From contig JAYWIR010000020.1 of assembly GCA_036172245.1 (NCBI GenBank), forward strand, positions 2,914,001 through 2,978,000: 64,000 nucleotides of DNA, written 5' to 3'. A program made the position numbers and the translations under genes. The notes beneath the pieces are model-generated. The model was not told where the DNA came from, did no database searches, and saw nothing but the letters and a program-made list of their open reading frames with translations. Positions within the stretch are counted from its first letter, which is position 1. The number at the start of each line of letters is the position of its first letter. Below are positions 1 to 44,500 of the stretch, piece after piece. Origin of the DNA: Raillietiella orientalis. Taxonomy: Eukaryota.

Positions 1-1092
1 GCAAAGGGCTAGATGGCCATGCCTGTTGCTTGTTGAAAGCGAAAGTTGGTTATGCAGTGGTTTCCAGGAAACACTGAGGTCAGATGACATGCTGGAAATG
101 ATGTAATGGCCGTCAGTTGATGATGCAGAAATGTTGCATACAATTCTTTAACGAAATGATGCCTTGAAAAGAGCATGCATTTACGAAAGGCTTCAATAAG
201 TGCAAAGTGTGCAACAATTAGGAGAATGGTGTGCAGTGGTTATGCTGACAGGTTGAGGATGCGGTTGTGATGTTCACGAGTTTCCCTACGTGGCAGTTAA
301 GGAATTGCTTGCTCTTGGGGAAATATGGGTAAATCGACTGCTGGTTGTGTATATCTTATGGCCATGGGTAGTTCTGTGCGAGGCTGCATCCATCAGTGCT
401 TTTGGCAGATGCAATTGGGCAAACTGCAATGTGATGCATCGTATGGTGGTCGAATGTAGCAGTTGAGGCGCCTGAAATACATGTTCGTAGTAAAGATTCG
501 TAGATGTTAGCAACCACGTTGCACATAATCTTGTTTCTGGTAACTGACGCGCTTTGAAAAGCGGTCTGGTTGAGCTACAGGGTTTGTGGAAGCCAAAGGG
601 ATTGCTTGACAAGGGAGGAGGTTGTTGGCGGAAGTGAGGAGGAGGTCAGATGGCATAAACCTTTTCATTGCAGAATTGTTTTCACGGAAGAGGGTGCCTG
701 GTGAGCGTTAGTTTTTACATCAAAGCTGCGGAGATCTGTAGGATGATGAAGCGGGTAGAACGTGAGTCGCAATAGAGGTATGTGGACGGAAGTGTTTTTG
801 TGCACAAAAAGATACCGGAATCAGTGGTACATATGCAGGTGTTGTGCATTCGGAGACGATCTGAATTTTCAGTTTATCAGAGAAAGATGACATCAGACTA
901 GTTTGGAATGCCCTTTTCGTTTGGAGACGCATTTGTACCAATTTTCTTGCTTCTCTGATCCTTGAAGAAGAGGGAGTTAGAAATAATTGTGAATCGTGAG
1001 GTGGGAGGGTGTTTTCCGTCACATGGAGCTTCCGCGATCGTTACGAACGGTTTCATGGGGCTAATTGGTTTATTAGCGAATTTCTGAGCAAC

Positions 1093-1277
1093 ATCCCTTA
1101 TCAATAATCTCCCTAACTGTACTAGCATGCATTAACTAATTTCTTAATATAAGCCCTCTCATCAACTGCAACCCCATAATAATCATCATAACATTTCAAC
1201 CCCTAAACATAAAATTCATTATACCCATCAATAATAAACCAATAAAGAGCCCTGCAATCGCTATATATTTCTCCATG
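1093..1277 (-). pseudogene. nad5: NUMT: fragment of mitochondrial NADH dehydrogenase subunit 5 (C-terminal region)
   Basis: Abrupt A+C-rich block on the + strand. Under the invertebrate mitochondrial code the minus strand reads MEKYMAIAGLFIGLLLMGMMNFMFSGWNVMMIIMGLQLMSGLMLSN*LMHASTVSEIIDKG, with TGA as Trp. It is hydrophobic and ends at a D-x-G(W) motif typical of the ND5 C-terminus. Gene identity is inferred from motifs only. Confidence 0.55.
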
Positions 1278-3366
1278 CTGCGGCGAGTGAGCACGCATTC
1301 CGAGAGAGACTTGCATTCCTTACCAGAATGACCTGGAAGCTGTTGTATTTGTATCAGGTGGATGTAAATACGAACGGAAATGGGACATGCAGTAGTTTTT
1401 ACTCTCCTTCAGTGCCATCAATTAGGATGAGGTTTTGTGTACTTGCATTCCCAGCGCCCCGGGTTTTACGGGAAATTACGTACTCGGAACGTGTGTACGC
1501 ATATGGGGATTCGTGGGTTACAATGAGCGGTGCGGGTCTTATGCAGATTAGCCAACGGTCGTGAAGTTTCAACCAATTGGAAGTTTGGGTTCGCTGAAAA
1601 AAATTATCTGGCTGATCGATTAGTTAGCGATGTAGCGGTGTACGAAGCGCACAGAGTTAGCGAGAATCCTGGAACGGACAGAGGAAACACCCTTGTGAAT
1701 AATGATTATAACGGTTTCCGGTTCTTTGAACGTGCCAGTGGTCTGCGAGGTTGCGTTGTGAGCTGTAATTAGATCTGTCGGATGCCTTCTTTTGGCAGCA
1801 AGGGTTCACTATTTGCAAGTTTATAGTGGCAACAGTTGGCGAATTGGTTGCTGTACTCAATTGGTTGAGCGCTTATGGCAAACGGTCTCATGTTGCAGTC
1901 TGGGAGGCTTGTTGGTGACGGCTCCTGTTGCGAAGCAAGTAAGTTTCAGTCTATCCGACGTAGGCAGCTATCGTGATCAACTGAGAACTTGCACAGAGAA
2001 GTGGAATCGGATTGCCTTTTTAAAACGGAGTTTCCTGACGGCTATTGGCGGTGTAGTTACTATCTATAATTGGTTTAGTTACCTTCTATACTTGAGGTTC
2101 GTCCAGGGAAGCATATTGTATTTGATTTACATCAAATGCCACTGCTTTTCCTATACCTAATGTTATGACATCAGAGAAAATATGAGCCGAACTTCCAATA
2201 AATTGTGCCTTAAGCTAAGCTCGATCATCCCAGGAATGTACACATTTGCTCTTATTTGTGGCCTCTTCGGCCGGCACATAATTATCGACATGGTGTGAAC
2301 ATTTGTGGCAGTGGCCATAGCTAAAAGCATGATCTGTAAGCACAGATAAACAATTTGACACCAATACAAATATAGAATTCAACAAATTTATACTAAGGAA
2401 AATGGAAAACTACATAAAAAATTCCAACATTTTGTTTAGGAGTACGATACTACTAATTTTCTGATTTCATACCATCCGGTACTCTCCTGCAGTGTTTCCC
2501 AGTAGCGAAGTGCGCGCACAGTAGGGCTTAGGGGTTTTCTCGCGTGGGCTGCACTGGTAAGGGTGAAACGTTGAGTTAATTTTTCATTTTTAAATTAAAT
2601 GTTTTAATTAATCTGTCCAATTGTTAATAAATGGGCAGATATTGAGACTAAGAAATTAAATTTCCATAGAGTTCAATTGCTTCGAACCAGAAATCCAAAA
2701 ATGGTTTAGTCACATGACCTGTATTGTACTGAGACGGAGACCGATGATCCTCCTTGTTGAATTGTCATTCTTGTTTGCATACTTGTATTCTTTGCTTAAT
2801 AGCTCCTTCGATCTGAAAATGGACAAAAAGTTGAAATATGCTGCGCAGTTTCCTGCATCTCTTCATCTTTTCTGCCTTTGAGATCATCAGTGTTGCCAAT
2901 GGTAGTGTCGTTTAGAAAGTGTATTTTCTCGAAGGAATCTTGGCATTCCAGGCATTATTTGTCACGAGTTGAGACGTACTAGAGATGGGTGCAAGTGAGG
3001 ACCACATTCGTGCGTCTCCATTATCCTTAAGTTCTACTCATAGTGAATGTAATTCGGACGAAAATAGAAGTGGAAGTTATGGAGCACTTGATGAAGAGGC
3101 GAAGTTGTGTCTTGAAGTCATGGTTTTCGTTACTGATCTTCGAGTCTTTCACGAGAAAACGCAGCAGCATATCCGCAGAATACTGGGAAGAGTTCTCTTG
3201 TGGAAGATTGCCTTGTACGCTGGTATTCGTGTGGTGGAGACTGTGGACATAGGTTCTCAAAGGACATGGGTTCTTTGAATACAGTCTCTCATTCTAATGC
3301 TAGTCCGTATATTTGAAAACGAAGGCGCAGTGTTTCTATAAGAGTTTGGGAATTAGGGGTATGTCT

Positions 3367-5462
3367 TAACACCCGGATATGCCGGGGCATTTATTTAGGG
3401 AATAAAAATACAATTCCATTTTCTCATGGTGAACCTAAGGGCTCACCACGTCACAGCAACTTGCAGTTTGTCGGTGCAAAGACCGGCGAGGTCCATCCAC
3501 TGCGCAGGGGTAGGGGAAAAACAAACAAAAACAAAAACTGAAACGTGAAACGTGGGGAGGGAAGAAATCTGTAGGGGTGAGGAGGGCGGGGGAGGGATTA
3601 CATTGTGCGTGGAGCGGTTTTCTAGATCCTGTTCATGATCCAAGCAAGCCGCATCCTTTCTGCACCCATTTGGGGCCACCTGGCGATGTTCCACACAAAG
3701 ATGCGCGTCCAATGGATGGCATACCTGCCATACTGTCCTATTCTGGACGCGTTCCATGCCGCCACGATTGCACGAATGCAAAAACAGCACTGCTATAGAC
3801 GCGGCTGGGGTCAAGGCGGCACGCGAGAAGAGGCGCCTGAAAATGTCCCTGGGGTCGCCTCCGCCAATGTTCAGGATCGTTGCAAGACGATTCTAGAGCG
3901 GACGGAGGGCGATGCAGTCCACGAGAAGGTGCGTGAAAGTCTTTTCCCCCGCACCGCTCACACAGGGCATCCACACTTCCACGTGTCCAGTGAGTGAGGC
4001 GTGGTTTGCATGGGAGTCCCCAATGCAGGACGAACAACGCCACCTCCTGCTACTTCATGGGGAGGGAACCACTGTTCCAACACGCTGAGGGCCACTTCAC
4101 CTCCTCCGGAGGTAATGCGAGTAACTCGCCCCGGTGTACAAGTCCATATTCGGTCGCAGCGTCCGGTAGCTGACGAGATGTCCACGCCTTTATCGGTTTG
4201 GTCCTGCCGTCAATGACGCAGGACACATTACACTCCCTCGTCGCTGTCCCTAGCGTTCACCAGGGAGGGCAGCACTGGGGCAAGAGCCCACAGCAGCTTG
4301 TCGTGGGATTTCACATCTGCAGCGTCCAGCGAGCGTGTCTTCTCAGGCAAGTGTTTTTTGTTCCATACGGATCGTTGCCCACGTAGAAACTGACACCCGC
4401 AGCCATGCGGAACAGTTCGCGGGGAGGCAGAAGGTTCAGGCACTCTCCCAAACCACAATGGCTATGCGACGCAGCTGAGGCCTGCATTGCGTGAGCCTGT
4501 CGTCGATCGTCACCAGAAACGACGAGAGTCCTCAGAAACCTGTGGCTCGTTGGGCCAAGAGGCATGGTGGGACGCACGATGGCGTATCCCACAGTTCGAC
4601 CGCAAGGGCGAGAGCCCGGAATCTGGTGAAGCTCCGTGCGCTCCAACGTAAGGTGGCCCAGTCCACCATCCCTACGTGGAGCACACAAGTGCTTCAATCT
4701 CACGCGGGACTTTCCTGTGCGCCACAGGACTGTCCTTAGGAGGCCCGCTGCTCGCTTTCTGATGATGGGAGGGCGGGACAAAAAAGCAGGGGTGGAGGAA
4801 GGGGGCCGCAAACGCGTTCCACCGCGGCTCGTTCCTGCAAGTAAAACTTGCCTTCTTGGAACGGGCCGATCGGCAACAATGCCTTCTGGAGACGGTCGTA
4901 CCAGGCTTCTGCTAGCAGAAGTCCTCCAATGGAACGCCGAGGTACTTCACGTACCACCCTTGAGGATCCCCAAGCGGATCCAGTCCGACCAGTCTTGCCC
5001 ACGTCGCACCGACCGGCACCAAGGACGACTTTTCCCTGCCCGCCTCCAGGCTTGCTCCCCGACTTGACAACTCAAGAAGCGTTCGAGCGCGGACGTCGGA
5101 GTGGTCCCGGGGAGAAGCAGCAGAAGATCATCTGCATAGGTCGATACTGCAGGAGTGCCCGGGCACGAGCTTGACCAGGTTGCCAGAGTTTCCTTGTATG
5201 CTCTCTGCACCAACTCGAAGTGGATCCAAGGGGCTCAGACTATCTCCCTGCCGGGTGCCGCGGCGAACTGATACGCCGTACACGTGCTGGCCGCTGAAAC
5301 CAATATTGATATATGCGTTGCGCCAGCAGGAGCGCAGGTAGGACTGGAACACGGTCGGCAAACCCATGCGTTCCAGTAGCTCCAGAAGGAGTTCCTGGTC
5401 GACGCAGCAGTCGAAAGCTTTGCGCAGATCGACCGCGACTGCAAGGGCTCCTGCCGAGTCGA
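3367..5462 (-). mobile_element. 5'-truncated Tx1/L1-clade LINE (RT C-terminal half, zinc finger, 3' UTR), frameshifted
   Basis: AVDLRKAFD, RRGTRQGDSLSP, YADDLLLL and LHWGLPC...CERCG motifs across several frames. The family 3' terminal AATAAA plus CCCGG-N5-CCGGG hairpin is at 3370-3395. Confidence 0.93.
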
Positions 5463-5999
5463 GCTCCTTGTATTTTTGGCTATATTTTTTGAGCCTTTGG
5501 ATTATGTCATGGGAGCGAAGTCGAGCAATGGTCTTGATTTGAAGGAGTATCATAAAGTTAAGGATTGTGTCGCTGATAGCAATATCCGTTTGCTGAGAAT
5601 GTGGTTCCTGGTTTGTGGCCTGAGTATTCTAAGCTTTTCTCAACGTTGGATTATTTCAGGCGGAAGCCTGGTTCATTTTATGAAGATAGGTTTTCTCGAG
5701 GTGTGAGGGTGTACTACGTTGTTCGTATGATAGTGAGGACTAATGTGGAAGGTGGTGCTTATAGTAGTCGTCGAAAGTGTCCTTAGTTGGACACGGATTC
5801 TGGTTTGGATATGTAGGTTAAGTTGGAGACTTTGCTTGTGTATACAGTACGGCGCGTTTCCGGTTTTACTCTACCGGATGCTTGGGTGCAGCGTAAAGTT
5901 GGTGAAGCTGATATTTTGTTGAAGAATGCGCCGGTGGTGCGAATTCATCGTTCTGTGTATGCTGTTTTTTCGAAAAACGTTCGAAGTGTCAATTGGTGA
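5463..5999 (+). pseudogene. cap: Endogenous CRESS-DNA virus capsid gene, copy 1 (5'-truncated by the LINE)
   Basis: Broken frames give ...RKCP*LDTDSG...PVVRIHRSVYAVF, which align by eye with AKCPWVDSGEDG...PIYRITQKF of the capsid at 6932-7908. Followed by AATAAA at 6003-6008 and convergent with rep. Confidence 0.65.
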
Positions 6000-6002
6000 G
6001 GA

Positions 6003-6040
6003 AATAAATGTAAAAGTTTCTTTAACTATGTTCCTTTATT
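6003..6040. terminator. Convergent polyadenylation signals of cap1 (+) and rep1 (-)
   Basis: AATAAA on + at 6003-6008 and on - at 6035-6040, between the two convergent stop codons. Confidence 0.65.
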
Positions 6041-6061
6041 GCAGGAGTTATTAGGCCTTCG

Positions 6062-6584
6062 TTAACGGTAAGAGTGGTTGGGTTTCGTTGTGCTTGGAGA
6101 ACAAACCCATGGGCGAATGTCGCCTTCTTCTCCAACCTTGCAATCAGTTTTCTTGGACAACGAGTGACTGGAAATGTTTTGTATGATCCATCTATCTGTG
6201 GACATCTTGGAATAGTCCGGTTCTCAATTCGCAAAGACTATAATATGGGGTGGCTGGAAATATTTGATGGATCCTTGGTATTTCGTTATCTTCTTTACTG
6301 CAGTACCAAATGTTGCTCTGAGATGTGCCTTTGGTTCGCTCTAGGTGAGTTTTGTGGAATGGTTTGCGGTGCGAACCAGGCAAAGTTCTCGGCTCCTTGA
6401 GTTGGATGTACCCTTGCAAGCGCGGAGTTCCGGTTTCGGCTGTTTCGCGTACAATGCAGGCGAAGCAGCAGTTTAGTCGGCACCATTGCTTGATGTCTTT
6501 AAACTCTTGTTCTGTGTAATTGCAAAAAGTCATGCACCAATTGAAATTAAGTGCGTAAGGCATATTGACGTCACTGGAGGTCAT
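6062..6584 (-). pseudogene. rep: Endogenous CRESS-DNA virus Rep, copy 1, with an internal deletion of most of the SF3 helicase
   Basis: HUH motifs I (WCMTFCN), II (TPRLQG) and III (YCSKE). At ~6284 it jumps out of frame to the C-terminus [31 protein letters not shown]. Confidence 0.92.
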
Positions 6585-6623
6585 TCACTGCAGGTAAGAC
6601 TGCGGTTCGGATCCTCTTGGTGG

Positions 6624-6631
6624 TTTATATA
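6624..6631 (-). promoter_or_regulatory. TATA box of rep1
   Basis: TATATAAA on the - strand, 40 nt upstream of the rep ATG and next to the ori hairpin. Confidence 0.6.
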
Positions 6632-6658
6632 CTGGCTAAGTGCGCAGTACTTTCGTTA

Positions 6659-6690
6659 GCGCAATCTGGTCAGTATTATCCAAATTGCGC
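6659..6690 (+). promoter_or_regulatory. CRESS rolling-circle origin stem-loop
   Basis: GCGCAATCTGG / CCAAATTGCGC form an 11-bp stem with one mismatch. The loop holds CAGTATTAT (6671-6679), one change from the NANTATTAC nonamer. It lies between divergent rep and cap. Confidence 0.85.
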
Positions 6691-6931
6691 AGTAATTATC
6701 CGATACCGTAGGAAATTATGTAAGCAGGTTCATTTTGAGTGGCTGGTGTTCTTTTATCCGCAGTCGTGGAAGACTTAGGAATGCGGAAAAGCGACATGCT
6801 TTCCAGCTGATGAGTCTGGTGAAACCCGACCCCGTGGAAGGCTAGTGTAGTCGGGTGGGCCAAGCCCACCAGCTGAAAGTTAACAGGGGTGGGGGGATTG
6901 AAAAATCCTCAGTAGGCTTTCTAGAAGCCGA

Positions 6932-7908
6932 ATGGCGACATTATGTCGTTTTGCTCGTCGAAAAAGGAAAGATGGTTCTGTCGTTGCTGTAGGGAAGCGT
7001 CGTCGACTGACCAGATTGCGCTCTGGTTATGATACGTTTAAAAGGCGTCGTCGTTGGAATCGTCGTAGGAGAAAAGCTCGATTATATCGTAGTCCTCGTT
7101 GGAGAACTGCTTGTTCTCTTCGTGTAGTGGAAAGGGCTGTGTTGGTTGGTGCGGTTCATTATGCTTCTCTGCGGACGGTGGACAATGATGATGTAAACTG
7201 TTCGTGGTTGTTTGCTTACCTGGAGGATTATAAAACTTTGAGCACGTTATTGAGAACATTAAACTTGGAACAGTATGCGCGTTATTATCATTATGTGAAG
7301 ATAAAAGGATGTGCGACGAAGGTGGAGCCAATGTCTTTGGGTTTAACGATAGGGAATATGGCGGAGGAGTTCGGGATGAAAGTATCGTATAGGAATATGA
7401 TTTTGCACCAGTCGGCTGCGCAGGGTTCCGTCGAAGATGATGCCATTTTTGAGATGATGCCATGGTATTGTGGAAGTCGGCGCCGCAAGGGGAGCATTTC
7501 GGAAACATGGGTGGATTGGATTACGATAATGTGAATGATCGTATATTAGCGCCCGAGACGTCTGGTTATTGGGCGAGATATTTTGGAATACGTTGGTATT
7601 CAAAGGTGTACGTGTTGAAACGGGTGGAAATGGCGGGTTTCTAGGTGCATCGCTATGCAAAGTGCCCGTGGGTGGATTCTGGCGAAGATGGAGGCGTGGA
7701 TTCTGAGACGCATGTGCAAATTGGTTTTGGACGTTTCCATGTCCTGAAGCATATGTCTGCAGTGGTCATACCTGACAATCTGAAAGATGGTTGTGTTCAC
7801 GGTGTGTGTCCGAAGAACGGGCAGCTTGTAACAGGTTATCCGATTTATCGTATAACCCAAAAGTTTTGTTATTTAAGCATCTGCGAGATGGATTGTATGG
7901 CTAAATAA
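6932..7908 (+). pseudogene. cap: Endogenous CRESS-DNA virus capsid gene, copy 2 (full length, frameshift ~7530, stop at ~7642)
   Basis: Very Arg-rich N-terminus (KRRRRWNRRRRKARLYRSPR), YARYYHYVKIKG and CPWVDS. Divergent from rep across the ori, with AATAAA at 7904 and 7921. Confidence 0.85.
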
Positions 7909-7937
7909 ACGTTAAGTTGGAATAAATTATTTTTATT
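7904..7937. terminator. Convergent polyadenylation signals of cap2 (+) and rep2 (-)
   Basis: AATAAA on + at 7904-7909 and 7921-7926, and on - at 7932-7937, overlapping the stop codons. Confidence 0.65.
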
Positions 7938-8635
7938 GGTCTACTTCAACGAAAAAGGGAGACAGTGTACTGGCTTGGGAAGAGGCAGGTGACTGCTCTG
8001 GTCTTGTGCTTGAAGAGGCAGTCCACGGGAGGATGTCTCCTACTTTCCAGTCGGTCTTGCGGCTGAGGGTAGAGCTGCCGATGTTGTGTACAATCCATCG
8101 GTCGTTTGATAGTTTTGTGTACTCCGGCTCCCAATTCGCGCAAACGATGATGTGGGGTGGTTGGAAGTACTTATTGGAGCCTTGATATTTGGAATCAAAT
8201 ATGATTCCGTTCTTGAGGCTTTCGATGAAGTCGTATTGGACGTGCTCCATGTTATCTTTTGAAAAGTCGACAACGATGATACTCTCGCCATTGTCAAAAT
8301 GGGCGGCGTCGGCTTTCTTGCAGCTGTGCATGTATATTCCGCCTTTCTTTAGAAATAGAAACTTGGCCCTGGTTGTCTTGCCGGTGTTTCCTATGGTATC
8401 ATAGTACCAGTGGATTTTCCGATCGTTGGGTTTGTGTCGGATGAGGTCGAGTATTCTGAGTTGCTATTCTCTAAGTTGTAGCCCTGCGAGCGGGTTCGGA
8501 TGGAGTCGTGTTCTGGAGAGGCGAAAGCATTCCTTTATCAAATTGATATTCTTTGCATAAAAGTGAGTGTGATTCTTCCGGATGTATAACTCGTCTGTGC
8601 CGTTTTCAATGAGTTGTAATATCTGGAATGGAAAT
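7933..8635 (-). pseudogene. rep: Endogenous CRESS-DNA virus Rep, copy 2 (SF3 helicase half, nanovirus/alphasatellite-like), 5' part replaced by a LINE
   Basis: LRE*Q...DRKIHWYYDTIGNTGKTT (Walker A), IIVVDFSK (Walker B), ESLKNG...SKY, [8 protein letters not shown] (motif C) and LSNDRW. One in-frame stop at 8464. Confidence 0.93.
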
Positions 8636-8639
8636 GTTG

Positions 8640-11600
8640 GCAGTCCGACCACGCTTCGGCTGCGCCGATAGCGCCCAACGGAACGCTAAGGTACTTGAAG
8701 TACCCGCCCGTGGGGATCCCCAGGCGGATCCAGTCGAACTTCCTCTCCCACGACGCACCCACAGGAACGACCACGCTCCTCCCTCTGTTCACGCTCACGC
8801 CCCCTCCCCGACGAATCAGGACAAAGAAATCCTCGACACTGGACGCCTGGTTGGACATGGAGAGCAGAACCAGTTCATCTGCATAGGCAGCCACGGGAGG
8901 CGTTCCCGGGCAAGAGCTAGGCAGGTATTCCAGTGTCGGCATGTACGCCCTCAGCACCAACTCAAAGAAGATGCTAAAGAGCAACGGGCTGAAACTGTCG
9001 CCCTCCCTGATGCCCCTGCGCACGGGAATACCGTACGGCTGTCGTGCGCCACGCACCTCTGCAGCTCGAGCCACGTGCACGCGAAGAACAGGTTCGCCTC
9101 CATGGACCGTCCGGGAACAGCATACGACTGCTCCGGACTTACCACGGATCCGGTGATCCTGCCTAGGCGCGCGACCCAGACCTTGGAGAAGAACTTGACG
9201 TCCGAATTCACGAAGGTGATCGGACGCCAGTTGTTTAATTGGCGCATCTCTCCGCCTTTCGGCAGGAGACGCACCCTTGCTGAGCGAAACGAGGCCGGGA
9301 CATTGCCCGTCTCTCACATCAGCGTAGAAAGGCTCAGCACCTGGGGGATGAGCTCCGCCGCGAAGCACTGGTAGAACTCCGCAGGCAGACCATCCTCACC
9401 TGGCGCCTTTCGCCTCTTTAGGCCCTCCATGGTGGAAGACACTTCTTCCGCCGTGAAGGGCAAGTCCAAATTGGCGCTTTCGTCCTCGTCGACAGCAGGA
9501 GCATCCGGCGGAAGAAGCAGCTCGTAAACACTGAGTTCCGTCGGCTCCCTTGCATACAACGAAGAGTAGTAGCGCTTTAGGAGGCGGCGAACATCGACCG
9601 GTCTCGAGCATTCCAGGCCCTGGTCGTCGAGCAGACAAGCCACTCCTGACTGCCAGACCTGGCGCTCGGCCTTGTCCTTGTACTCCGCAAAGTACCGGAC
9701 GTCCGGGCATCGAGAGAATTGGCGGACCGATGTTTTCAGATCGTCCCAGTCCACGAGCTCCCGTACGACCAAGCTTCGGAGATGCTGGCAGAGGTGCTCC
9801 GCAGCCACCGGATTTCTCAACCAGTTGGCCGGCAGCCTCCAGACGTGCGTCGGAGGGCCCTTGCCAGGCGGCAGTAACTCGAACTCCAGCCTGTGGTGGT
9901 CGGAAAGCTGGGACGGCACGGGTCCTCTTCGACCCACCCAACAATGCAGGTGATCGTCGAGGAACACATGGTCCGGCAAAGCACGCATTCCGGGATCGTC
10001 GGCCAGCAAATTCGAAGCGTGCACGGACGCGCACACCTCGTTCACCAGCCGCTTCTCCCGGCGACGGTGTGTCTCCTCCGATAGCGCATGGACGTTGAAG
10101 TCCCCGGCTACGAGGTGAGCCACGTCGGGGCCGGAGTTGCTGAGCCAGCGGTCGCGCATTCTCTCGAAAAACTCGAGTTTCTCGGTGTGACGCGCGGAGC
10201 CGCTCGGCGCGTACACGTTCGTGACGACAAGGTTGATCGATTCGGACCACTTGAGAACAAGTTGGTCCACACGACCTTCGTCGTCGAAACAAACGCTCCG
10301 CACGCCCCCATCACCCTGCCCCGGACAAGCAATGCCATTCCGCAGGTATTCTGGGAGCCTGACCTCCAATGGAGCGTCCTGCCTGCGCGGACTGCTAGAT
10401 CGGCCGCTTGCTGTTCGGAGAGCGCGTGAATCTCCTGCAGCAGGGCCAGATCAAAGTCCCGCAACACGGTACCTACCAATCGCCTCTTCTCGTTGTCCTG
10501 CAGACCGTTGACGTTCCAACAGGCCACTCGGACGCGACGGGAAGAAGCGAGACCGCGCATTGCTGCTACGGACATGGAGGTGCGTTCCTCGCCCCGTCCG
10601 GCGAGGCATCAGCCGGGAGCACGGCGGATGAGGTAGCGCAAGCGCTTCCTGTCCCCGCCGCGCCGCTCGCGGCCGGCTCGGTGGAGTCGAGGACCATTGC
10701 CTCGGGCTCCGAGGAGCATCGGGAACCGTTCCCGGCATCAGGCTCTTGCCTGGCAAGTTTTGGCTTGCGCGCAGCCCTGGCCTTGACCGGGGCTTGGTGA
10801 GCCTTAGCGCTGCCCTCGGACTCCACCTCGGAGTCCGAATTGGGCGCGTGCGGCGGGCGTTTCGCCCGCCTCTTTGTTTGCTGGCAGCCCGGAGCTGGTC
10901 CAGCACTCTTAGAGGGTGCCTTCGTCGCCGATCCCCCTTTCGGGGTCACGGCTTCGGCAGCTCCCCTCTCTCTGCGGGTGTTTGCGGCGGCGCGCGCGGC
11001 GGCAGCAGAGGCTTTTCCTTGCGCCTTTCTGGGCGCGCGGGGTTGCCTCTTCACTCCGCCTACCTTTTTGATCGGGAAGTGGGAAGGATCGCGCGGTTTG
11101 CGCTCCTTCTTTCCCCCGACGAAGGTTCTGCCATCCTCGCCGCCTTCCTGTTTGCCCCGGTTGGGCGCGAGGGCTTCCAGGGTCCTTCGCATCCTTTCCA
11201 AGGCCTCGGATACGGCGATGGAGGCCAGTGACTCCTTCGCCACGTCTGCCTTCTGCACCTCCTTACTTGGAGGTGCGGGCACAGTGGCGGGATTCTCGGG
11301 TGTCGCGCGAGGCTTTTCAGCCTTTGCTGGCGTTCGGCCCGCCGTGGCCGGCTTGCCTGTCGCGGGCAAAAGGGCGCGCGACCCCTTTTTTGTAGCTTCG
11401 GTGGACTTCCCGGGCGTGCCACCGCTATTTCGCTCCGGAGCAAGAGCGGACGGAAGCGGCGGTGGTTTTGCAGCCTGCCCGATGTTATCGGCGGGCTGGG
11501 TTGCTCGGGGCTTCACTGAAGCAGTCTGGAGAAGCTTCTTGTCCTTTCGCGCGGGTTTTTGTGGAGCATTGCTCCGAGAATTGCCCGCGGAAGCGGACTT

Positions 11601-11916
11601 TTCACTTCTCCGCTGCGAATCCTCGTTCGCGCCTGATTTCTTCCCCGACGACGGGGCGGATGGAGTCGGCGCGGACGGCGATGTTGCGGGGAGGTTTCTC
11701 GCCGTCTTTCGTTTTAGCTCGGCGCACTCGTTAATCGAGTGGCCGAGCAGCTTACAGTATCGGCAACTGCGTGTTGGGCACTTCCGCGGACGGTGGCCCT
11801 CCTTCCCGCAGTTGCCGCAAGCGGGGGTTTGCCCGGCAAACCGGAGATAGATGACGACGTCACCGAGGAGGATCTGCGAAGGCATGAGCCTCCGGTCGTC
11901 CATGGTGACGCGCGCC
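8640..11916 (-). mobile_element. Tx1/L1-clade LINE fragment: ORF1 C-half plus ORF2 (APE endonuclease and partly deleted RT), truncated at both ends
   Basis: ORF1 (10566-11903) has CCHC knuckles CGNCGKEGHRPRKC and CRYCKLLGHSINEC. ORF2 from 10575 has WNVNGL, LLQE, NVYAP, GDFN, SDH, KAPGEDG, WRPI and YADE. Confidence 0.93.
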
Positions 11917-12164
11917 GTCGCAATTCACACCCGGATGTGCCGGGGCATTTATTTCTTTGAAATAAAAATACATGAAATGTCGCAATTGACACCCGGATGT
12001 GCCGGGGCATTTATTTCTTTGAAATAAAAATACATGAAATGTCGCAATTCACACCCGGGTGTGCCGGGGCATTTACTTCTTTGAAATAAAAATACATGAA
12101 ATGTCGCAATTCACACCCGGGTGTGCCGGGGCATTTATTTCTTGGAAATAAAAATACATGGAAT
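11917..12164 (-). repeat. Four tandem 62-bp copies of the LINE 3' terminal unit (AATAAA plus hairpin)
   Basis: Units start at 11917, 11979, 12041 and 12103. Consensus GTCGCAATTCACACCCGGRTGTGCCGGGGCATTTATTTCTTTGAAATAAAAATACATGAAAT, with no spacers. Confidence 0.95.
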
Positions 12165-14947
12165 ATCGCGTGGCGAACTCGAAGGTTCACCACTCCAAAA
12201 CAGCTTGCTGGTTACCGGCTCCATGCCGGAGAGGTCCTTCCGATGCGCGGGGATGGGAAATAAAGAAAAACAAAAAGAAACAAAAAGTTCAAATGTGGGG
12301 GAGGGAACAAATGTTGTAGGGGTGGGAGGGCCGGGAAGGGATCACGGTGCGCGTGGAGAGGTCCTCTAGATCCTATTCAGGATCCGCACAAGCTGAGTCC
12401 TTTCAGCGCCCAAGTGGCGCTACTTGCAGACACTGCGCGCGAAAAGGCGAGTCCAGTGTAAGGCGTTGCCGGTTGGCTGGCGCCTTCTTCTGGTGGCGTT
12501 CCAAGCCGCCACTATTCCTCTGATGCAGCAGAGGACTGCTACACTAGCGGGCGGGGACAAGGCGTCACTACAGAAGAGGCGCCTGAAAACGTCCTTTGGG
12601 CCGCATCCGCGCAAGTCCAGGATCGCCGCGAGACGATCCCACAAAGGGCGGAGGGCGCTTCATTCAAGGAGAAGGTGGGGGAATTTTTGTTTTTCCCCAC
12701 ACCGGTCACAATTGGGATCCACAGCCCCCCGGGTGGTGTGGTGCAGGCGTGCTTTGAATGGTAATCCCCAGAGTACCACAAGCAACGCCACATCCTGCCA
12801 TTTCAGGGGGAGGGATGCACTGTTCCAGGACGCTGGGGGCCACTTCATCTCCTCCGGAGATAGTCCGAGTAGCTCACCCCAGCGTCGAAATCCGTTGGGC
12901 GGGACGCTCGGCGTCGCAGCGTGAGCTAGCTGCCGAGATGTCCACGCCTTTATCGATTGTGTCCTACCGCCTATAGTGCAGGACACGGTCCATTTCCCCT
13001 GCTCGCTACTGTCCCTGGCATTCACAAGGAGGGGCAGCACTGGGGCAAGGGGGGTTATCAAGGCCCACAGAAGCTTGTCGTGGGACTGCACGATCTCCTG
13101 CAGCGTCCAGCGGGCGTGCCTTTTCATACAAGTGTTCCTTGTGCCCGCCGGAACGTGGATCTTTTCCCAGGTGGAGACTGACTCGTGCAACCAGGCGGAG
13201 TAGTTCCCTGGGAGGCAGGAGATCCAGGCGTTCTCCCGGACCGCAACGAATATGCGTCGCAGCATAGAGCCACAGTACGGTCTTCTGCAGACGCGCGCAG
13301 ACAGAAACGACAAAAGTCCGTCGAATCCGCAGGCTCGTTGGGCCAGGAGGCGTGCTGGAACTCACCAAGGCGTGTCCCACAATTCCGCCGCAAGGGCGAG
13401 AGTCCTGAACCTGAGTTGTAGTTCCATGCGCTCCAGCGTAAGAACGCCAAGTCCACCGTCCTTACGTGGAGCGCACAAGTCTTTGAGCCTCACACGGGAC
13501 CTCCCTTTGCCCCAAAGGACTGTCCTCAGGAGGCCCGCTGCTCGTTTTCGGAGAAAATAAGGGGCGGGGCAAACAAAAAGTAGGGGGCGAAGGAGGGGAG
13601 CCGCAAACGCGTTCCACACCGCGGCCCGTTCCTGCAAGTAGAACTTGCCTTCTTGGAACGGACCGATCGCCAACGCTGCCTTTTGGAGACGGTCGGACCA
13701 GGCTTCTGCTGCGCAGAAGTCCCCCATCGGAACGCCTAGGTACTTGAAGCACCTGTCCGTGGGGATCCCCAAGCGGATCCAATCCGACCGTCCAGCCCAC
13801 GCCGAACCGACGAAGACCATGGACGACTTCGCCCTGTTCACCTCCAGGCCCGTCCCGCGGCGCAGCAACTCGAAGTCCTCGAGCGCACTCGCCGGGGTGG
13901 ACCCGGGAAGCAGCAGCAGAAGATCGTCTGCATAGGCCGACACGGCAGGCGTGCCGGCACACGAGCTCGGCAGGGCTGCCAGAGTTACCCTGTATGCCCT
14001 CAGCACCAACTCAAAGTAGATGCTGAAGAGCAAGGGGCTCAGGCTGTCACCCTGCCGGATGCCGCGGCGTACGGGCACGCCGTACACGTGCCGGCCGCTG
14101 AAACCAATATTGATTGAAGCGTTGCGCCAGCAGGAGCGCAGGTAAGATTGAAGCACGGCAGGGAAACCCATGCGTTCCAGGAGCTCCAGAAGGAGATCCT
14201 GGTCGACGCAGTCGAATGCTTTGTGCAAATCGACCGCGACGGCAAAGGCTCCCGCCGAGTCCATCCCACCCTCTGCCCGATCTTCTTGGTCAGAGGGGGG
14301 CGCGAGGCTCCCTTGACCGTCCTGTGCAACGCGTTGTCGCAACGGCCACCATGAGCTGGCGAGGAGCAGGTTGGCCTCCATGGTTCGTCCGGGAACAGCA
14401 TAGGTCTGCTCGGGACTCACCACGGAAGCGGCCACCCGCCCCAAACGCTCAGCCCACAACTTGGCATACAACTTTGCGTCCGCATTCACTACTGTGATGG
14501 GACTCCAGTTGCCAATGTTGCGTAAGTCTCCTGACTTCGGCAGGAGACGTACTTTAGCTGACCGGAACGAGGCGGGAACTTCGCCGTGTTCGCGGATCAG
14601 CGCACTTAACCTGAGCACCAGGGGGGACAGCTCTGGCGCGAAGCGATGGTAAAACTCCGCGGGCAGGCCGTCCTCCCCTGGTGCCTTCCTTCTCTTGAGC
14701 CTGTTGATGGCGGAGATGATCTCTGCCATCGTGAACGGTTCCGCCAATCTGGAACGGTCCTCCTCCTTGAGCGCGGGAGCGCCATCCGGCAGCAGGCGCT
14801 GCGCGAAATGGCGCTCAGGTGTCAGTGGCGCGTACAAGGAGGAATAAAACTCCCGCACGATGCGGCTTACCTGGGCTGGGCTGGAGCGTTCTTGGCCCTG
14901 ATGATCCAGCAGGCTGGCCGAGCCTGACTGCCAGGCCTGCCTCTCCG
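11917..14947 (-). mobile_element. 5'-truncated Tx1/L1-clade LINE (complete RT domain, C-terminal zinc finger, 3' UTR)
   Basis: Begins at ERQAWQSGSASLL. Has KAPGEDG, VDLHKAFD, GIRQGDSLSP, YADD, FKYLG and CDRCGEKQKFPHLLLEC, with frameshifts in the C-terminal part. Confidence 0.95.
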
Positions 14948-15049
14948 GATACCCTTGGCGAGTGGACGTGTGTTTCCTTCGCTCCCGAGTGAGTCGACAG
15001 GAAGCGGTTTTTTCTTTTGTTGTTTGGTGTGGAACATCGTTGGTGTCCG

Positions 15050-16795
15050 ATGGCAGCGATGCCTGAGGACACCACGATGGAGGTAGGTGTGGGGGAGGCT
15101 TGCCCACCCCCACAGCTTACAGAATCAGGGGCGTCCGCCCCGGAATCGCCCTCGCCGCCCAAGACGAGAAGCTGGAGCGCCATGGTGGCCGCGCCGAGCG
15201 CGGAAACCGTGGCCGAGATGGCGGTTTACCGGGCTGCTGGGTACAAGCCCAGCTTGGTATACCAGGTAGGCCCCTTATTTGATGGAAAAACGGCACGCGC
15301 GTTTTCGAAAGCGCTGCAAAACGCCGGAGTAAGAGAACAAGATCTCGACGGTTTGTCCGTTCTCAGCGGAGGTCAGCGAGTCGAGGTGGTGTGCAAGGAG
15401 ATCACCTTGGCTCAGACTCTGATCACCAACCCGCTGAACGTCGACGGCCGCAAGATCTTACCGGTGACGATGGACCGCTCCGTGGTGGTCCATCTCACTG
15501 GAATAACGAGCCGTATGACTCGCTCTGCGGTAGCACAAGAACTGCAAAAGTTCGGCGAGGTGCACGCGCTATGGCCTAAGCCAACAATCTTTGAAGGCTT
15601 CAATAGCCATTTCGGAGGCCAAGTTGCAGCGCGGGTAACCGTGAGTAAGGATTGGGGGCTTCCCCACAAGCTGGAGGTCGCGCAAGAGAGCGCGGACCTC
15701 TGGTACGTGGGAAAGCCCCGGTATTGCGGCTACTGCGATACCGTAGGACACCTTCGCAAGAGGTGTCCTAACATCCAATGCCACATGTGCGGGGAGAAGG
15801 GCCACGTTCGACGTGTGTGCCCAAAACGCCCCACCCCGGATCCTCCTGCCGCGAAAAAGGCGCAGGGGAAACGCGCACTAAAGGTCACAAGACCTACGGC
15901 GGACGCTGGCCGGCAGAAGCTGCCAGATCCTCAACCTCCAAAAGAAAAGACGGAGGGTGAACCTCCCCAAGAGGCGGAAGGTGAAGAGGGCTGGCAACTT
16001 GTAGCAGCCAGAAAAGAGAAAAAATCTCCTTTAAAGGAGAAGAAAGAGAAGCCGGCCGGTAAGGCAAAAAAACCCGTGCCGCGTTCGAAAACCTTACGCG
16101 AGTGCACGGTGGCACTGGAACGTATCGTCGATACGGAAGATGCCACCCGGGGCGATCAGCCTCCCCTCGCCGTTTCCGTCGCGCCCAAAGTTCGCGACGG
16201 CGAACCCTCTGTGCAAACATAGGGTGAGCCGCGTGACGCACCGGTCGACACCGAGGACGCCGCGTTCGCAAAGGCGGCGGAGGAGCTCGCGGCCACGCTG
16301 GCGGAGCGTGAGAACCCCTCACGCAAGGCCGTGCGAAGGCCGGCTCCCGCGAAAAAGGCCCCCACAGGTGAGTCCGATCTGGGGGCCGGAAGTGCATCCT
16401 CCTCCTCGGAGGCACCCCCCAGGAAGTCGGGACGCAAGTCCCAGAAACCCAGGAGGCGAATCCCCTCCACCAGCGAGAAGGAGAAGCAGGAAGCTAGCGG
16501 TAGCGTGGGAATCCCGGAGGTGGAACTCCCACGCTCGGAAGCCGTCGAGCCGCCCACCCCCATGGAGGGTGAGCAGGGGGGCGAAGTCCTCCCTGCAGTC
16601 GCCGAGCCTGAACAGCCCGCCCCCATGGAGGAGGGCCAACCGGCAGGCGCGACCCCACCTGAGGGTGACCCGCTCGACACGCCGTTACCGATGGAGGAGG
16701 GGGACCAGGTGCACGCAGCGCCTGACCCTCCTTCTCCACCTAGCGTCCCGCCCCAACAGGTGGCGGATGCCGCATCGCCATCTTCCCAGGAGTAA
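15050..16795 (+). pseudogene. LINE ORF1 (RRM-like region, two CCHC zinc knuckles, low-complexity tail), premature stop at 16220
   Basis: VVVHLTGIT...LQKFGEV, CGYCDTVGHLRKRC and CHMCGEKGHVRRVC. The paralogue at 21610-23366 has Glu where this copy has TAG. Confidence 0.9.
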
Positions 16796-31357: not shown

Positions 31358-31591
31358 TTTCAATCTCCGTAAACCAGATAAACGGAAATCCAGTAAACAC
31401 ACTAATAGTATTCCAGGGAATAACATGACATTAGGCCTGATATGCCTTAGCCAGGTAGCCTCCTCAAAACGCATGTGCACGCCAAGCATGTGCGACATGT
31501 ATGGTGCTAGGAGCAATACCAGATACGAGCATGCTATGATGTATGCATGGTGGTTTGGGGTGAATGGGCGACAGATCATGCCTACAATGAA

Positions 31592-31615
31592 TACTAACTG
31601 TCTTTCTTCCTCCAG
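31592..31615 (+). promoter_or_regulatory. Branch point, polypyrimidine tract and 3' splice acceptor upstream of the viral NP-like ORF
   Basis: TACTAAC-TGTCTTTCTTCCTC-CAG, with the AG at 31614-31615, 22 nt before the first ATG. Confidence 0.55.
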
Positions 31616-31656
31616 TGCTATTAGTGACTATTCCGCAATGGCTGCTGCGAGCGAGG

Positions 31657-32829
31657 ATGACGTTGCTAACAACCTTTGAGGAATACAGTTCTAGTTTGCC
31701 CGATCTCGATGGAGACATCGAGATTGGTCTTACGACAAGGACTGATATAGCGTTGCCCGAAGATCGTCGACTCCCTGTATACCAACCGACAAACGCGAGG
31801 GCAACCATAGAGAATATCGCCGCTGTCGCCAACGGTTGGTTATATGCCGCCAAACATTTCAAAGATGCCCAAATATCCTTAATGGTGAACGGGATCTATG
31901 CGTTATTAACGTATGACATGGTCCGTTTCCGATCATTGGACGGTACACTAGTCCCTGATGGTGACTGGAGAGTAACCACTCAGCGTTATGACCTAAGGCA
32001 TACCCAGAGAGCTGCCAGTCAATCTATGCTCAACCAGCAGACGGCGACCAATTTGATGATACCGGTGGTAGCCACTAAGGTTTCTTGGTGGCTAACCAAC
32101 CATCATACTGGCGTCAAGGACAGTTCGAGAGGTGCTGGCTTCCCCCTAAAGGTGTGGCGAGCTCTCTTTGCGCGTTCTCCCCTATCTGAAGAGAAGGGGA
32201 TGGATGTAGCACACACTTTAGGCCACTTCGCCAGTACCTTAAGGATTATGGAATTAGCTGGTTTCACTCAGATTATCCCGTCTGTACCGATCGACATGCA
32301 AGGACCACCGTTTAAACAAGTAACAATCTCTCAGGATGCACTCCTTCGTTTCCTCTCGCCCCCCGCCGGTACTCACAGACACGCTGTGGCGTACCAGGCT
32401 TTTAAGAGGCTTGTGAACTGGGCCCAAGCCGCTAATTGCCCTGAAATCGAGAACATGTTGTTTTTGGGCGAAGTTTATGCGGAAATAATGTTAAACTCCA
32501 AGCACTATCACATCGGTGCGAAATACATAGCGGGGCAACCGAGGACTAACTTCAACGATGCAGATGCGGACTCGACATTGGGAAGACTGGGTTCGTTTAT
32601 TCTAAACGTCTACCCGAAGTCTACTCTTTGTCTCTCCCCGCACATGACACAACAGGCAGTGGAATCGAAGGAGGATTTCTCCCCGGAGTGGGAGGCATTC
32701 CGCGCTAAAGTACCCAAAGAGCTATCACTTAGACCAATTGAAATGATCATCCCTACTCCCGGTGTTGACAAGGTTGCCTCCAGCCCCTCAGCTCACTCGG
32801 ACACGAATTACACGATGACGAACGAATAG
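31657..32829 (+). CDS. Uninterrupted 390-aa ORF, putative endogenous negative-strand RNA virus nucleocapsid protein (Qinviridae-like)
   Basis: Long, intronless, globular-looking ORF unrelated to the LINEs. The motifs ATKVSWWLTNHHTG, SPPAGT, YHIGAKY and STLCLSPH match my recollection of qinvirus segment-2 proteins. The ORF is certain; the family call needs a homology search. Confidence 0.6.
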   Translation: MTLLTTFEEYSSSLPDLDGDIEIGLTTRTDIALPEDRRLPVYQPTNARATIENIAAVANGWLYAAKHFKDAQISLMVNGIYALLTYDMVRFRSLDGTLVPDGDWRVTTQRYDLRHTQRAASQSMLNQQTATNLMIPVVATKVSWWLTNHHTGVKDSSRGAGFPLKVWRALFARSPLSEEKGMDVAHTLGHFASTLRIMELAGFTQIIPSVPIDMQGPPFKQVTISQDALLRFLSPPAGTHRHAVAYQAFKRLVNWAQAANCPEIENMLFLGEVYAEIMLNSKHYHIGAKYIAGQPRTNFNDADADSTLGRLGSFILNVYPKSTLCLSPHMTQQAVESKEDFSPEWEAFRAKVPKELSLRPIEMIIPTPGVDKVASSPSAHSDTNYTMTNE

Positions 32830-41574: not shown

Positions 41575-44500
41575 ATGCAAGTGCTGGACACGATTCATTC
41601 GGAATATACCATGTGCAAAGCACACACAAACAGTTGGTATTGTCCAATCTGTGGTCAGTCGCTTCGGATACCAGTGATGCGTAGGAGATTGCAAGCATCC
41701 GGAGCTCTAGGTGCGTGCTCCAGAGTCCGCATGCAGCCGCACCACCTGGGCACCGGCTGCACTCAGATCACTCGATTTCTTGAGCGCCCCGCCTGCAAAT
41801 TAGGTAAATCTCTTGAAGAAGGACGAAGAAGGAGAGGCTCAGGGTACTGGCTACCGCTCTCCTTTCTTCGCCTTTGCAGTGTAGCACGTCGTAGCTCCAG
41901 CATTCTGTACACAGACGACAAGAGGAGGCGATCCTTGGCATCATGACTGGGGAACAAGCAACGGAGTTTCCGCTCTGACTGTCCTCATGCGGCATTTCTC
42001 GGGCAAGTGGAACACATTGCATTTCCCTGGCCCCATCGCACCCGCGTCCTGCCTCTCGTGTGAGGACACCACGCGGATTTCCTCAGACAAAATGGGAATC
42101 TCCATGTTCTCAGAAGCGATGGTGACCACTGAAGGTCTCGTGCCTTTCTGTTTGAGTTTTCGGCTGGCGCCTCCTCGGTGGAAAGCGCGAGCCCTTCCCC
42201 TGTAAGAACGGGCGACTTTCGTTGCTCTTCCTTTCGTTTTCAGGAATCCGCCGGATTGGAAGCAAATCGGAAAGTTTTCCGTCCATAAGTTTTCCAGACC
42301 ATTATCCGAGATCCCTCCCTTGGAAGAAGGAGACGATAGAGGGCTGTTTGTCAACTTGGAAGGACTTATAAGCCCTCTGATCAAAGATCAGATAGAAGAA
42401 AACACCGGAAAGGAGCAATTGCAGCCCGCTATCATTGATTACAAAGTATGGTGTGATTCTCCTCTCCCTAGACCATCCTCCTTTAGCCACAGTTGCTCAT
42501 GGAGAAACTACAAAAGGAACGAGTGAGACGGAAGCTATACAGAAGATATGAAAACCAAAAGGCAGAAAAGGAAAGTGGACATGGAGGACGAACTACGCCT
42601 CCTATAGAGGAGCGAAGCTATCTTCAGAGGATCCTGGAAGAAGGGAATCCTCGCTGGGAGGACTTTCTTGAGATATATCAAAAGGTGAAACTCAAAATCC
42701 AGGAGACACTTAACATAAAAACAGAGAGGGAAGGCGGAAAAAAACTAAGGATTGACCCTAACAACAGATCGTCAATTTAAAAGCTCTAATAACCGATTCT
42801 TCTCATTACACTTCATTCTACCTTCCATCATAGTAATCATTTCCATAATACACCTATTCTTTCTACACAAAACCCTTTCCTCAAACCCCCTAGGCACTAA
42901 AAGAAACCTAGACATACTACCTTTCCGACCATTTTTTATCATTAAAGACCTAACAAGCCTTCTACCACTTATTACACTCCTCCTATTTACATCCACCTTC
43001 TTCCCTTATATATTTATATCCGAAGAAAATTTCATAATCTCTAACCCTCTAATAACTAACGTTAATAGAAGAGGAGCAATTAGAGCGATTCTGGGCCAGC
43101 AGGACGCGACCTGTAAGCTGGAGACCGAGAAAGTTGAAAGGCATTTTGCAAAGGAACTTGAAATGAAGCAGGAAGCGAATAAGGAGCTTCCCAAGAAGAT
43201 AGTGCTAGGAAGTACCCAAGCAGCATCCCCCGTGGATCCATCTCCATTCACTAAGGAGGAGGTAGCTGCAATATTGCTCACTGCAGGGAATTCATCCCCC
43301 GGAGAGGATGTTATTATGTAAGCCAGGTGAAAGAGCATCGATCCAGAAGCTGAAATACTCAGCAATTTTTAATCTGCTAAGAAGTTTTCTGCGGATTCCG
43401 GAAGAGTGGAAATGTACCAGAACGGTACTCAAAGCGAAAAGCCCTGCAGCAGCAGAGGGCATCTCTAGCTGGAGGCCAATATCCATTGGCAATAGTGCCT
43501 ACAGGCTCTATGCCAAATGTTTGGCCTCCCGACTCAGAAGATGGATTCTGGAAAATGAAGTCATCGGCACTCAGCAGAAGGGATTTCTGCCCTTCGATAG
43601 AGTGCTGGAGCAAAACTTCAATCTGTAAGCAAGGTTAGATGCTACACGTCGTCTGTCGAAGGACTTCTGCGAGGTCTTCATCGACTTCGCGAACGTCTTC
43701 GGCACAGTTTCCCACGACATTATGATGGGAACACTGAAGAAAGCAGGTGCTGGAGATGGCATAAGAAATATTGTCACCGACATATATATAAGAAGTTCCA
43801 CCTCCTTTCAACTGGAAAATGCTGAAACCGGGACCTTCTCAGTACAGCGCGGAGTGAAGCAGGGATGTCCCTTAAGCTCACTCCTTTTTACCATATCGAT
43901 CGAACCGATTCTACGCTTGATGAGGCAAATCTACCGGGACGAGGCAACATTAGTCTATGCCGATGACATCGTCACACCGGGGAAGGAGGAAAAGAAAGTC
44001 CAGGAAATGATGGCACATTTCCAGAGGTTATTCGACCAGGCCGGCCTATCCATCAACCCGGCAAAATGCGCATCGATATACTACAGCGGCCGAACCCCTA
44101 AAGGTATGAGGGATGTGGACATCCAGGTTAAGGAATAGAAAATCATTTGTATTGCCTTATCACAGGCATACAAATACCTGGGAAAACCCTTTGGTATGAA
44201 GGTCTTCAACAGACAACCGTCTAAGGAGGACATCTGCCAGAAGGCGAGTGCCATACTTGAGAGTGAACTCTCAGGATGGCAGAAATTAGACGTCATGAAA
44301 ACCTTCTATCCCATCCTAGTTCACTACGAGAGGCTGGGAACTCACTGGAGGAAGGAATGGCAGTATGTCGACGAGCAAGTAAGGAAGAAGATTAAGAAGG
44401 CCCTTACCTTATCACCCTGGACAGCTAACGAGTATCTCTACGGAGAAAGAACGAAAGGCTGCCTAGGACTAATGAAGTTAGCTCAAGAGTTCGATACCAT

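Follow-up and report, generated by a model that had tools for sequence, protein, structure and literature searches.

A decayed endogenous element with sequence from two related CRESS-DNA viruses between LINE fragments in Raillietiella orientalis

Endogenous circovirus-like and other circular Rep-encoding single-stranded DNA (CRESS-DNA) elements have been described in animals and protists (PMC3198968, PMC6069186); statements about published elements, here and below, refer to excerpts of the cited papers. There the elements are integrated, decayed, Rep-bearing DNA, often in transposons, and related viruses may have inserted repeatedly in one host; transposons as targets and multiple insertions in a host are noted as well in PMC3198968 and PMC6186406. 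Capsid sequence is scarce: one survey of endogenous circular single-stranded DNA viruses lists 302 Rep and 3 capsid sequences (PMC3198968), and another gives no new cap (PMC6069186). A cyclovirus-like element of the tapeworm Hymenolepis microstoma resembles the present case in having rep- and cap-derived sequence at one invertebrate locus (PMC6186406). Tandem geminiviral sequences in Nicotiana and Dioscorea are likewise head-to-tail integrated copies of Rep-encoding circular single-stranded DNA viruses, and more than one viral lineage per host is possible (PMC7758297). Here, we describe an element in a 64,000-nucleotide (nt) stretch of Raillietiella orientalis (assembly GCA_036172245.1, contig JAYWIR010000020.1, positions 2,914,001 to 2,978,000 of the forward strand), called the window and numbered from its first letter. 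The sequence of the element indicates an origin from two related but distinct viruses, which we call A and B.

The locus differs from each of these systems. The survey elements are almost only rep (PMC3198968, PMC6069186), whereas this locus has an origin hairpin, a full-length though broken cap, and a piece of a second virus; on the parse that we favor, which we hold to be somewhat probable, it also retains all of rep except about 13-21 codons. The Hymenolepis microstoma element falls inside a named genus (PMC6186406), whereas the nearest listed Reps here are 33-47% identical. The Nicotiana and Dioscorea sequences are from plants and another virus family and repeat one unit (PMC7758297), whereas about 1.35 units of two diverged viruses are present here. 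The literature that we searched, the coverage of which was incomplete, yielded no report of two different CRESS viruses being joined at one locus.

The viral insert occupies window positions 5461-8638 and has about 45% G+C. Its features are as follows.

5461..5999, + strand: cap1, the 3' part (about 55%) of the predicted cap gene of virus A, with its stop at 5997-5999.
6003..6040: convergent poly(A) signals of unit 1, read from the sequence, AATAAA at 6003-6008 (+) and 6035-6040 (-).
6062..6283, - strand: C-terminal fragment of the rep of virus A, from KYQGS to the stop at 6062-6064.
6284..6287: breakpoint inside rep, where the frames as read pass from endonuclease to C terminus with a one-base shift.
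6285..6584, - strand: Rep endonuclease (HUH) domain, ATG at 6582-6584, 100 codons free of stops.
6625..6631, - strand: TATA element, TATATAA, read from the sequence about 40 nt upstream of the rep ATG.
6641..6694, + strand: origin of replication, with repeats, stem and nonamer.
6658-6674 and 7006-7022: a 17-nt perfect inverted repeat, formed between the origin hairpin (its 5' arm and some of its loop) and the Arg-rich 5' end of cap2.
6932..7908, + strand: cap2, a predicted capsid gene of about 325 codons with an Arg/Lys-rich N terminus.
7904..7937: convergent poly(A) signals of unit 2, read from the sequence, AATAAA at 7904-7909 and 7921-7926 (+) and at 7932-7937 (-).
7933..8638, - strand: rep2, comprising linker, superfamily-3 helicase and C-terminal tail, cut off at 8638.

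The order is therefore a cap fragment converging on rep, the origin hairpin, and a cap converging on a second rep. An earlier note made from the sequence alone, the original prediction, had proposed this order and these strands, and the reading frames bear it out; the TATA element, the nonamer hairpin and both convergent poly(A) junctions are also present as proposed. Its bounds (5463..8635) needed correction to 5461-8638. The description as two genomes does not hold, as both units are partial: cap1 is the 3' 55% or so of its gene, rep1 lacks Walker A and B, and rep2 lacks the endonuclease.

The two units are neither identical nor uniformly diverged. Detectable DNA similarity between them is restricted to the last about 200 nt of rep (6174-6283 with 8081-8190, 73%; 6088-6129 with 8004-8045, 74%), where the encoded C termini are 63.9% identical over 72 residues (E 1e-23); the relationship had been predicted, and the strings quoted for it are present in the sequence. 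Across the 72 aligned codons, 19, 17 and 51 differences fall at codon positions 1, 2 and 3, respectively (chi-square about 42, 2 degrees of freedom, by our own computation), and the proportions of nonsynonymous and synonymous differences are 0.26 (pN) and 0.94 (pS, saturated). Neutral decay after a duplication would hit all codon positions alike. Third positions dominate instead, and the differences between the Rep C termini therefore accumulated while both genes were under selection, in two separate lineages of virus. The synonymous and nonsynonymous comparison that had been suggested thus gave no sign of uniform neutral divergence, and the earlier statement that the array is not a concatemer of one genome is sustained by units that are not identical and by differences biased to third positions. 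Serial integration or recombination of related viruses, or an old duplication with fast capsid divergence, had been offered as its origin: the related viruses stand, and the duplication is ruled out by the 19/17/51 distribution. Virus A carries 3 lesions in about 215 codons and virus B 3 in about 660 (binomial p about 0.16), and thus serial and simultaneous integration are indistinguishable.

The capsid genes are more distant. When cap1 (5580-5996) was aligned to cap2 (7453-7905), the Smith-Waterman score was 59, and none of 1000 shuffles (27.3 +/- 4.7) reached it. The alignment is colinear with the C-terminal half of cap2 at 21% identity, and one cap1 stop falls at the position of a cap2 Trp. 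We conclude from the alignment that cap1 and the C-terminal half of cap2 are genuinely, though distantly, homologous, such that 5463-5999, for which an absence of capsid homology had been contemplated, does contain it. In cap1, there are in-frame TAG codons at 5784-5786 and 5814-5816, and the reading frame upstream of 5580 is ambiguous; in cap2, the frame shifts at a point between about 7450 and 7470, and a TAG interrupts it at 7642-7644. That cap2 encodes a capsid is predicted from its position, its basic N terminus and a language-model lead: its nearest clusters in a protein atlas are Cressdnaviricota (score 0.95, 202 of 256 features in common, a lead only), and the Circo_capsid family is found on 29-31% of the members of those clusters. 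Sequence searches gave no match of note, whether in Pfam (none credible), by word-based search (0 of 347 candidates at E<=0.01), by phmmer against 326 open reading frames (ORFs) from 79 relatives (none at E<=10), or with ten cap-like profiles from relatives against four queries (best E 0.024, not significant). Finally, a single-sequence AlphaFold model of cap2 frame A was too poor for a fold search (pLDDT 36, pTM 0.20).

Rep is represented by pieces, and no single reading frame in the locus carries the endonuclease and helicase domains together. Searched with a profile built from 64 full-length Reps, the endonuclease piece covers positions 26-114 (E 1.5e-25), rep2 positions 105-275 (E 4.1e-55), and the virus A fragment positions 228-274 (E 6.4e-21). 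The endonuclease piece also matches Pfam Viral_Rep (E 8.1e-11; score 42.5 bits, cut-off 26) and solved Rep nuclease domains (E 3.3e-9 to 7e-6), contains motif I (CMTFCNY) and motif III (YCSK), and is the sole gene piece without a stop or frameshift. We note that motif II, at 6408-6416 (-), reads RLQ and that 7 of 7 aligned relatives have H at its first position (HLQ); the substitution could be either post-integration decay or a trait of the lineage. Three codons past motif III (YCSKEDN), rep1 passes with a one-base shift into KYQGS, and similarity to the DNA of unit 2 ends at 6283. Thus read, rep1 lacks about 150-165 codons, Walker A and B included, and ends in the last 75 or so codons of rep, while the open frame of the endonuclease piece itself continues in the wrong register until it meets a stop at 6192-6194. 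The virus A fragment is interrupted by an in-frame TGA at 6224-6226, at the position of a Trp in Rep2.

The rep2 piece has Walker A (GNTGKT), Walker B (IIVVDF) and motif C (IIVCAN), an in-frame TAG at 8464-8466, and no part of the endonuclease domain. Its match to Pfam RNA_helicase was under the cut-off (E 0.017), and sequence search of the PDB returned unrelated matches only (E>=0.34). Against a library of 1.84 billion representative proteins, however, rep2 (7936-8638, -) gave 6625 matches at E<=1e-3, 3469 at E<=1e-10 and 6 at E<=1e-30, the best being 7.1e-59. Third-position GC is 0.55 in the rep 5' piece, 0.56 in rep2 and 0.49 in the virus A fragment, a difference that is not significant.

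The in-frame stops at 5784, 5814, 6224, 7642 and 8464, the cap2 frameshift, and the truncations leave the locus without viral function now, and as assembled, it is a dead, chromosomally integrated endogenous viral element. The same lesions argue against a free virus or contaminant. Neither tblastn nor a six-frame profile search found further Rep- or Cap-like pieces elsewhere in the window, the single profile match beyond the insert having an E of 0.83.

What kind of virus contributed the insert is suggested by the gene arrangement and by Rep. Rep and cap lie in opposite senses and are read away from one shared origin, and the unit measures about 2.4 kilobases (kb); this is the ambisense arrangement that had been predicted. 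The prediction of a nanovirus- or alphasatellite-like Rep, in contrast, fails on that arrangement: Nanoviridae and Alphasatellitidae have components of about 1 kb with one gene each in one sense, and here rep and cap share one unit on opposite strands. Moreover, the endonuclease domain matched 2hwt and 6h8o in the PDB (E 3.5e-3) more weakly than it matched 7kii (3.3e-9) and 2hw0, 5xor, 6wdz and 7lar (1.5e-6 to 7e-6), a group made up of chains named "ATP-dependent helicase Rep" and entries with the identical domain. A profile search of the same groups gave 7.7e-29 versus 2.8e-12 for 2hwt and 6h8o. We take the first group to be circoviruses and the second to be nanovirus; with structures so identified, Rep would come from an unnamed CRESS-DNA virus lineage closer to circovirus-type than to nanovirus-type Reps. 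Circoviridae genomes are about 1.7-2.1 kb, and a unit of about 2.4 kb together with weak PDB E-values argues against membership in that family.

Relatives of the lineage are mostly unnamed. The rep2 matches are 33-47% identical among the 150 matches listed, and the source records checked for 18 Reps (17 listed rep2 matches and P0002) held one virus name, Dragonfly larvae associated circular virus-10 (P0011), for which a literature search by name returned no classification. That virus and metagenomic CRESS genomes (L001-L079) resemble the locus in having ambisense rep and cap, a nonamer hairpin opposite the rep strand, a size of 2.0-2.8 kb and the same order of Rep domains. They differ from it in Rep (30-47% identity), in cap (similarity undetected among the 326 ORFs), and in the nonamer, which ends in T rather than C. 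Searches for closer relatives gave 1 match by word-based search and 0 in a single-protein scan of viral contigs, and a lineage-specific pattern matched 131 stretches in metagenome contigs, of which 0 were confirmed. The best rep2 match, P0003 (E 7.1e-59), is labelled a hypothetical protein, from a 3.9-kb contig assigned to a bacterial metagenome bin; its ORF of 354 residues holds two linker-plus-helicase units in tandem and lacks an endonuclease. Perhaps it is another integrated or rearranged CRESS element, wrongly binned; a search for P0003 in genome contigs gave 0 matches.

The origin lies between the 5' ends of rep and cap2. A 7-base-pair (bp) stem (6659-6665 with 6684-6690) presents the nonamer CAGTATTAT (6671-6679) in its loop on the cap-sense (+) strand, and the repeat TGCGCAGTA stands on either side of the hairpin, at 6641-6649 and 6686-6694. 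The hairpin folds at -14 kcal/mol, a stability that 4 of 200 shuffles reach (z -2.61), and only one of the four AGTATTA sites in the window sits in a loop closed by a stem of at least 7 bp, versus 0.045 in shuffled windows. Among 62 relative contigs of at most 3 kb, 59 had a comparable hairpin, and the nonamer was on the strand opposite Rep in 55 of those 59, as it is at this locus. For the 17-nt inverted repeat that includes the hairpin arm, about 3e-4 such pairs would be expected in 3.2 kb by our own arithmetic, and it could form within a single strand at the expense of the 7-bp stem of the origin. It was not recovered as a trait of the lineage, since only 2 of 59 relatives match over at least 12 nt, inside their control range. 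We also note that the + strand of the insert, the strand of the nonamer and of the cap sense, is C-poor (0.12-0.20) and G/T-rich throughout, regardless of gene direction. Damage to the packaged single strand could be a cause; a similar skew is also found in parts of 1-3600, outside the insert.

The insert is contiguous, as assembled, with long interspersed nuclear element (LINE) sequence on both sides.

3604..5460, - strand: LINE-A, the left flank, a 5'-truncated retrotransposon fragment running from reverse transcriptase to the 3' end.
8639..11924 (outer end approximate), - strand: LINE-B, the right flank, a 3'-truncated retrotransposon with endonuclease and reverse transcriptase.

LINE-A is 75.5% identical to another copy in the window (12348-14261), and its RVT_1 match (E 1.7e-5) is under the Pfam cut-off; LINE-B has Pfam matches to Exo_endo_phos and RVT_1. 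On the left, similarity to other LINE copies stops exactly at 5460, and on the right, similarity to the copies at 29700, 19032, 24806 and 13692 begins exactly at 8639. Both junctions are single and sharp, and the window contains 0 N bases. Relative to the copy at 12348-15100, LINE-A covers 12348-14261 and LINE-B starts at 13692, which leaves a common stretch of about 570 bp, within which the two flanks are 67% identical over an alignment of about 360 nt. Judged by this overlap, the insert does not split a single element but lies between two different LINE copies, and the present locus thus required one or more other events, either a LINE insertion or a deletion. The surrounding LINE-rich block, from about 3.6 to 31 kb, has 55-66% G+C. 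Between 3600 and 31000, fragments of related LINEs, at least six in number and with 58-66% G+C, are densely clustered in both orientations, where the background has 34-47% G+C. For their reverse transcriptase, the nearest database match is a metagenome protein at 68%, and the next matches are at most 28% (a tick protein, 28%).

As to how the viral pieces fit together, we consider it somewhat probable that 6284-8638 is one near unit-length genome of virus B (2355 nt) and that 5461-6283 is a fragment of the related virus A. The circular double-stranded form of genome B would have been broken inside rep, just past motif III, with a loss of about 40-65 nt, which would place the 5' third of rep (6285-6584) and its 3' two-thirds (7933-8638) at opposite ends, around the origin and cap2. 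A 0.82-kb piece of virus A (5461-6283), made up of the 3' half of cap and the 3' end of rep, would have been attached, in matching orientation, where B had been broken. We infer co-infection of one host by the two viruses and a putative germline integration: double-stranded replicative DNA of both would have been present in one nucleus, then broken and end-joined at a chromosome break in a LINE-rich region, with a LINE insertion or deletion accompanying or following integration. In support, the endonuclease piece ends 3 residues past YCSK in an alignment with 7 full-length Reps, and the start of Rep2 precedes a linker helix by 4 residues; in P0008, P0010, P0015 and P0025, this helix is found 20-28 residues past YCSK. 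Thus, only about 13-21 residues would be missing between the two pieces, and for two independent breaks on a circle of about 2.4 kb, the chance of lying no more than about 65 nt apart is about 5% by our own arithmetic. Moreover, 2355 nt is in keeping with the relatives, as 62 of 79 fetched contigs are 2.0-2.8 kb, and third-position GC of the rep 5' piece leans toward B, not significantly.

Several points weigh against this parse. The coincidence of the breakpoints is an argument of about 1 in 20 only. The profile alignment sets Rep2 residues 18-27 (LYIRKNHTHF) on the positions of motif III, in which case the rep pieces would overlap instead of abutting; we judge that placement to be a weak local extension, given a much better pairwise pattern with P0010 and P0015. 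By sequence affinity, the rep 5' piece is unassignable to A or B, because the two viruses are each other's closest relatives (64-67% Rep identity, and at most 47% to anything else among the matches listed). The flanks are two different LINEs, such that a single clean insertion fails to explain the locus, and the evidence for integration and for the junctions is the assembly itself. Finally, the predicted capsid cap2 is without a sequence homologue.

Other arrangements can be considered. A possible but clearly less probable one is that two units, each a cap converging on a rep, were joined head to tail in or near the origin, for example as a heterodimer formed when Rep terminated on the origin of a co-infecting relative. 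The rep 5' piece and the origin would then belong to A, rep1 would later have lost about 500 nt internally, and unit B would be cut at 8638 by the host junction, all at the same tentative level. The gene layout fits, the same TGCGCAGTA repeat is on both sides of the hairpin, and the two-virus evidence fits equally well; origins are, moreover, recombination hot spots in rolling-circle replicons. The arrangement requires one breakpoint more than the near unit-length genome of B, however, and leaves it unexplained that the rep1 deletion should start within about 13-21 codons of the rep2 cut-off. Nor is there a visible change of sequence character in 6585-6931. Tandem integration or later duplication of one virus, with the copies drifting apart neutrally, would account for the head-to-tail order and for the colinear similarity of the Rep C termini at a spacing of 1907-1916 nt. 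We regard it as barely credible, because differences concentrate at third codon positions (51 of 72, versus 19 and 17) and because similarity is very uneven: the 3' end of rep is 73% identical at the DNA level, and cap shows no detectable resemblance.

Two further explanations concern the route into the scaffold. Free viral DNA or a contaminant might have been stitched into a repeat-rich scaffold by the assembler, and the flanks are indeed repeats, where assemblers err; the viral genes have stops, a frameshift and large truncations unlike a replicating virus, however, and the junctions are single, sharp and N-free, and we think such an artefact quite improbable. Alternatively, a LINE reverse transcriptase could have switched templates from LINE-A RNA to viral transcripts to LINE-B RNA and left a chimeric retrocopy. 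In its favor, the LINE fragments on either side share one orientation, and LINE-A has its 5' truncation precisely where the insert begins. The insert contains both gene senses, an untranscribed origin and two convergent poly(A) regions, however, and would require a read-through transcript exceeding the length of the genome, while a poly(A) tract is present at neither junction. We consider this RNA route very improbable, marginally more so than the artefact.

With regard to the host, an Rfam scan of the window gave 0 matches and a tRNA scan 0 tRNAs, and the taxa indicated by the protein atlas were mixed. Just beyond the LINE block, at 31591-32829 (+), there is a 412-codon open frame without a Pfam match. 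A nuclear copy of a mitochondrial cytochrome b fragment lies at 42794-43063 (+) and covers residues 177-264 (E 7e-19). Its frame continues to about 45020, into a second, different reverse-transcriptase element (43266-45020, YADD motif). An AGA codon in the fragment aligns to serine, as in invertebrate mitochondrial codes, and hints weakly at an invertebrate animal host. Of the animal germline that had been proposed, the animal is thus plausible and the germline putative.

Why an endonuclease frame should remain intact in a dead element invites speculation. It is conceivable, and in our judgment unlikely, that the locus is a frozen recombination intermediate of two co-infecting species from an undescribed invertebrate CRESS-DNA family that the host has put to use. 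Its one intact piece, a 130-codon open frame that begins with the Rep endonuclease domain (6192-6584) and retains its own TATA element and origin repeats, may have been kept as an origin-binding, dominant-negative antiviral protein, or alternatively, the whole locus, in its LINE graveyard, may feed antiviral small RNAs.

Ultimately, the locus is a well-preserved viral fossil of an already known kind, a good specimen and not a new principle, and current views are not overturned by it. It does provide a predicted capsid and an origin for a lineage of Reps that is known elsewhere only from metagenomic contigs, and it ties that lineage to a cellular host. Moreover, the attached fragment of the second virus would be direct evidence that two related species were once present in one host nucleus and recombined there illegitimately.

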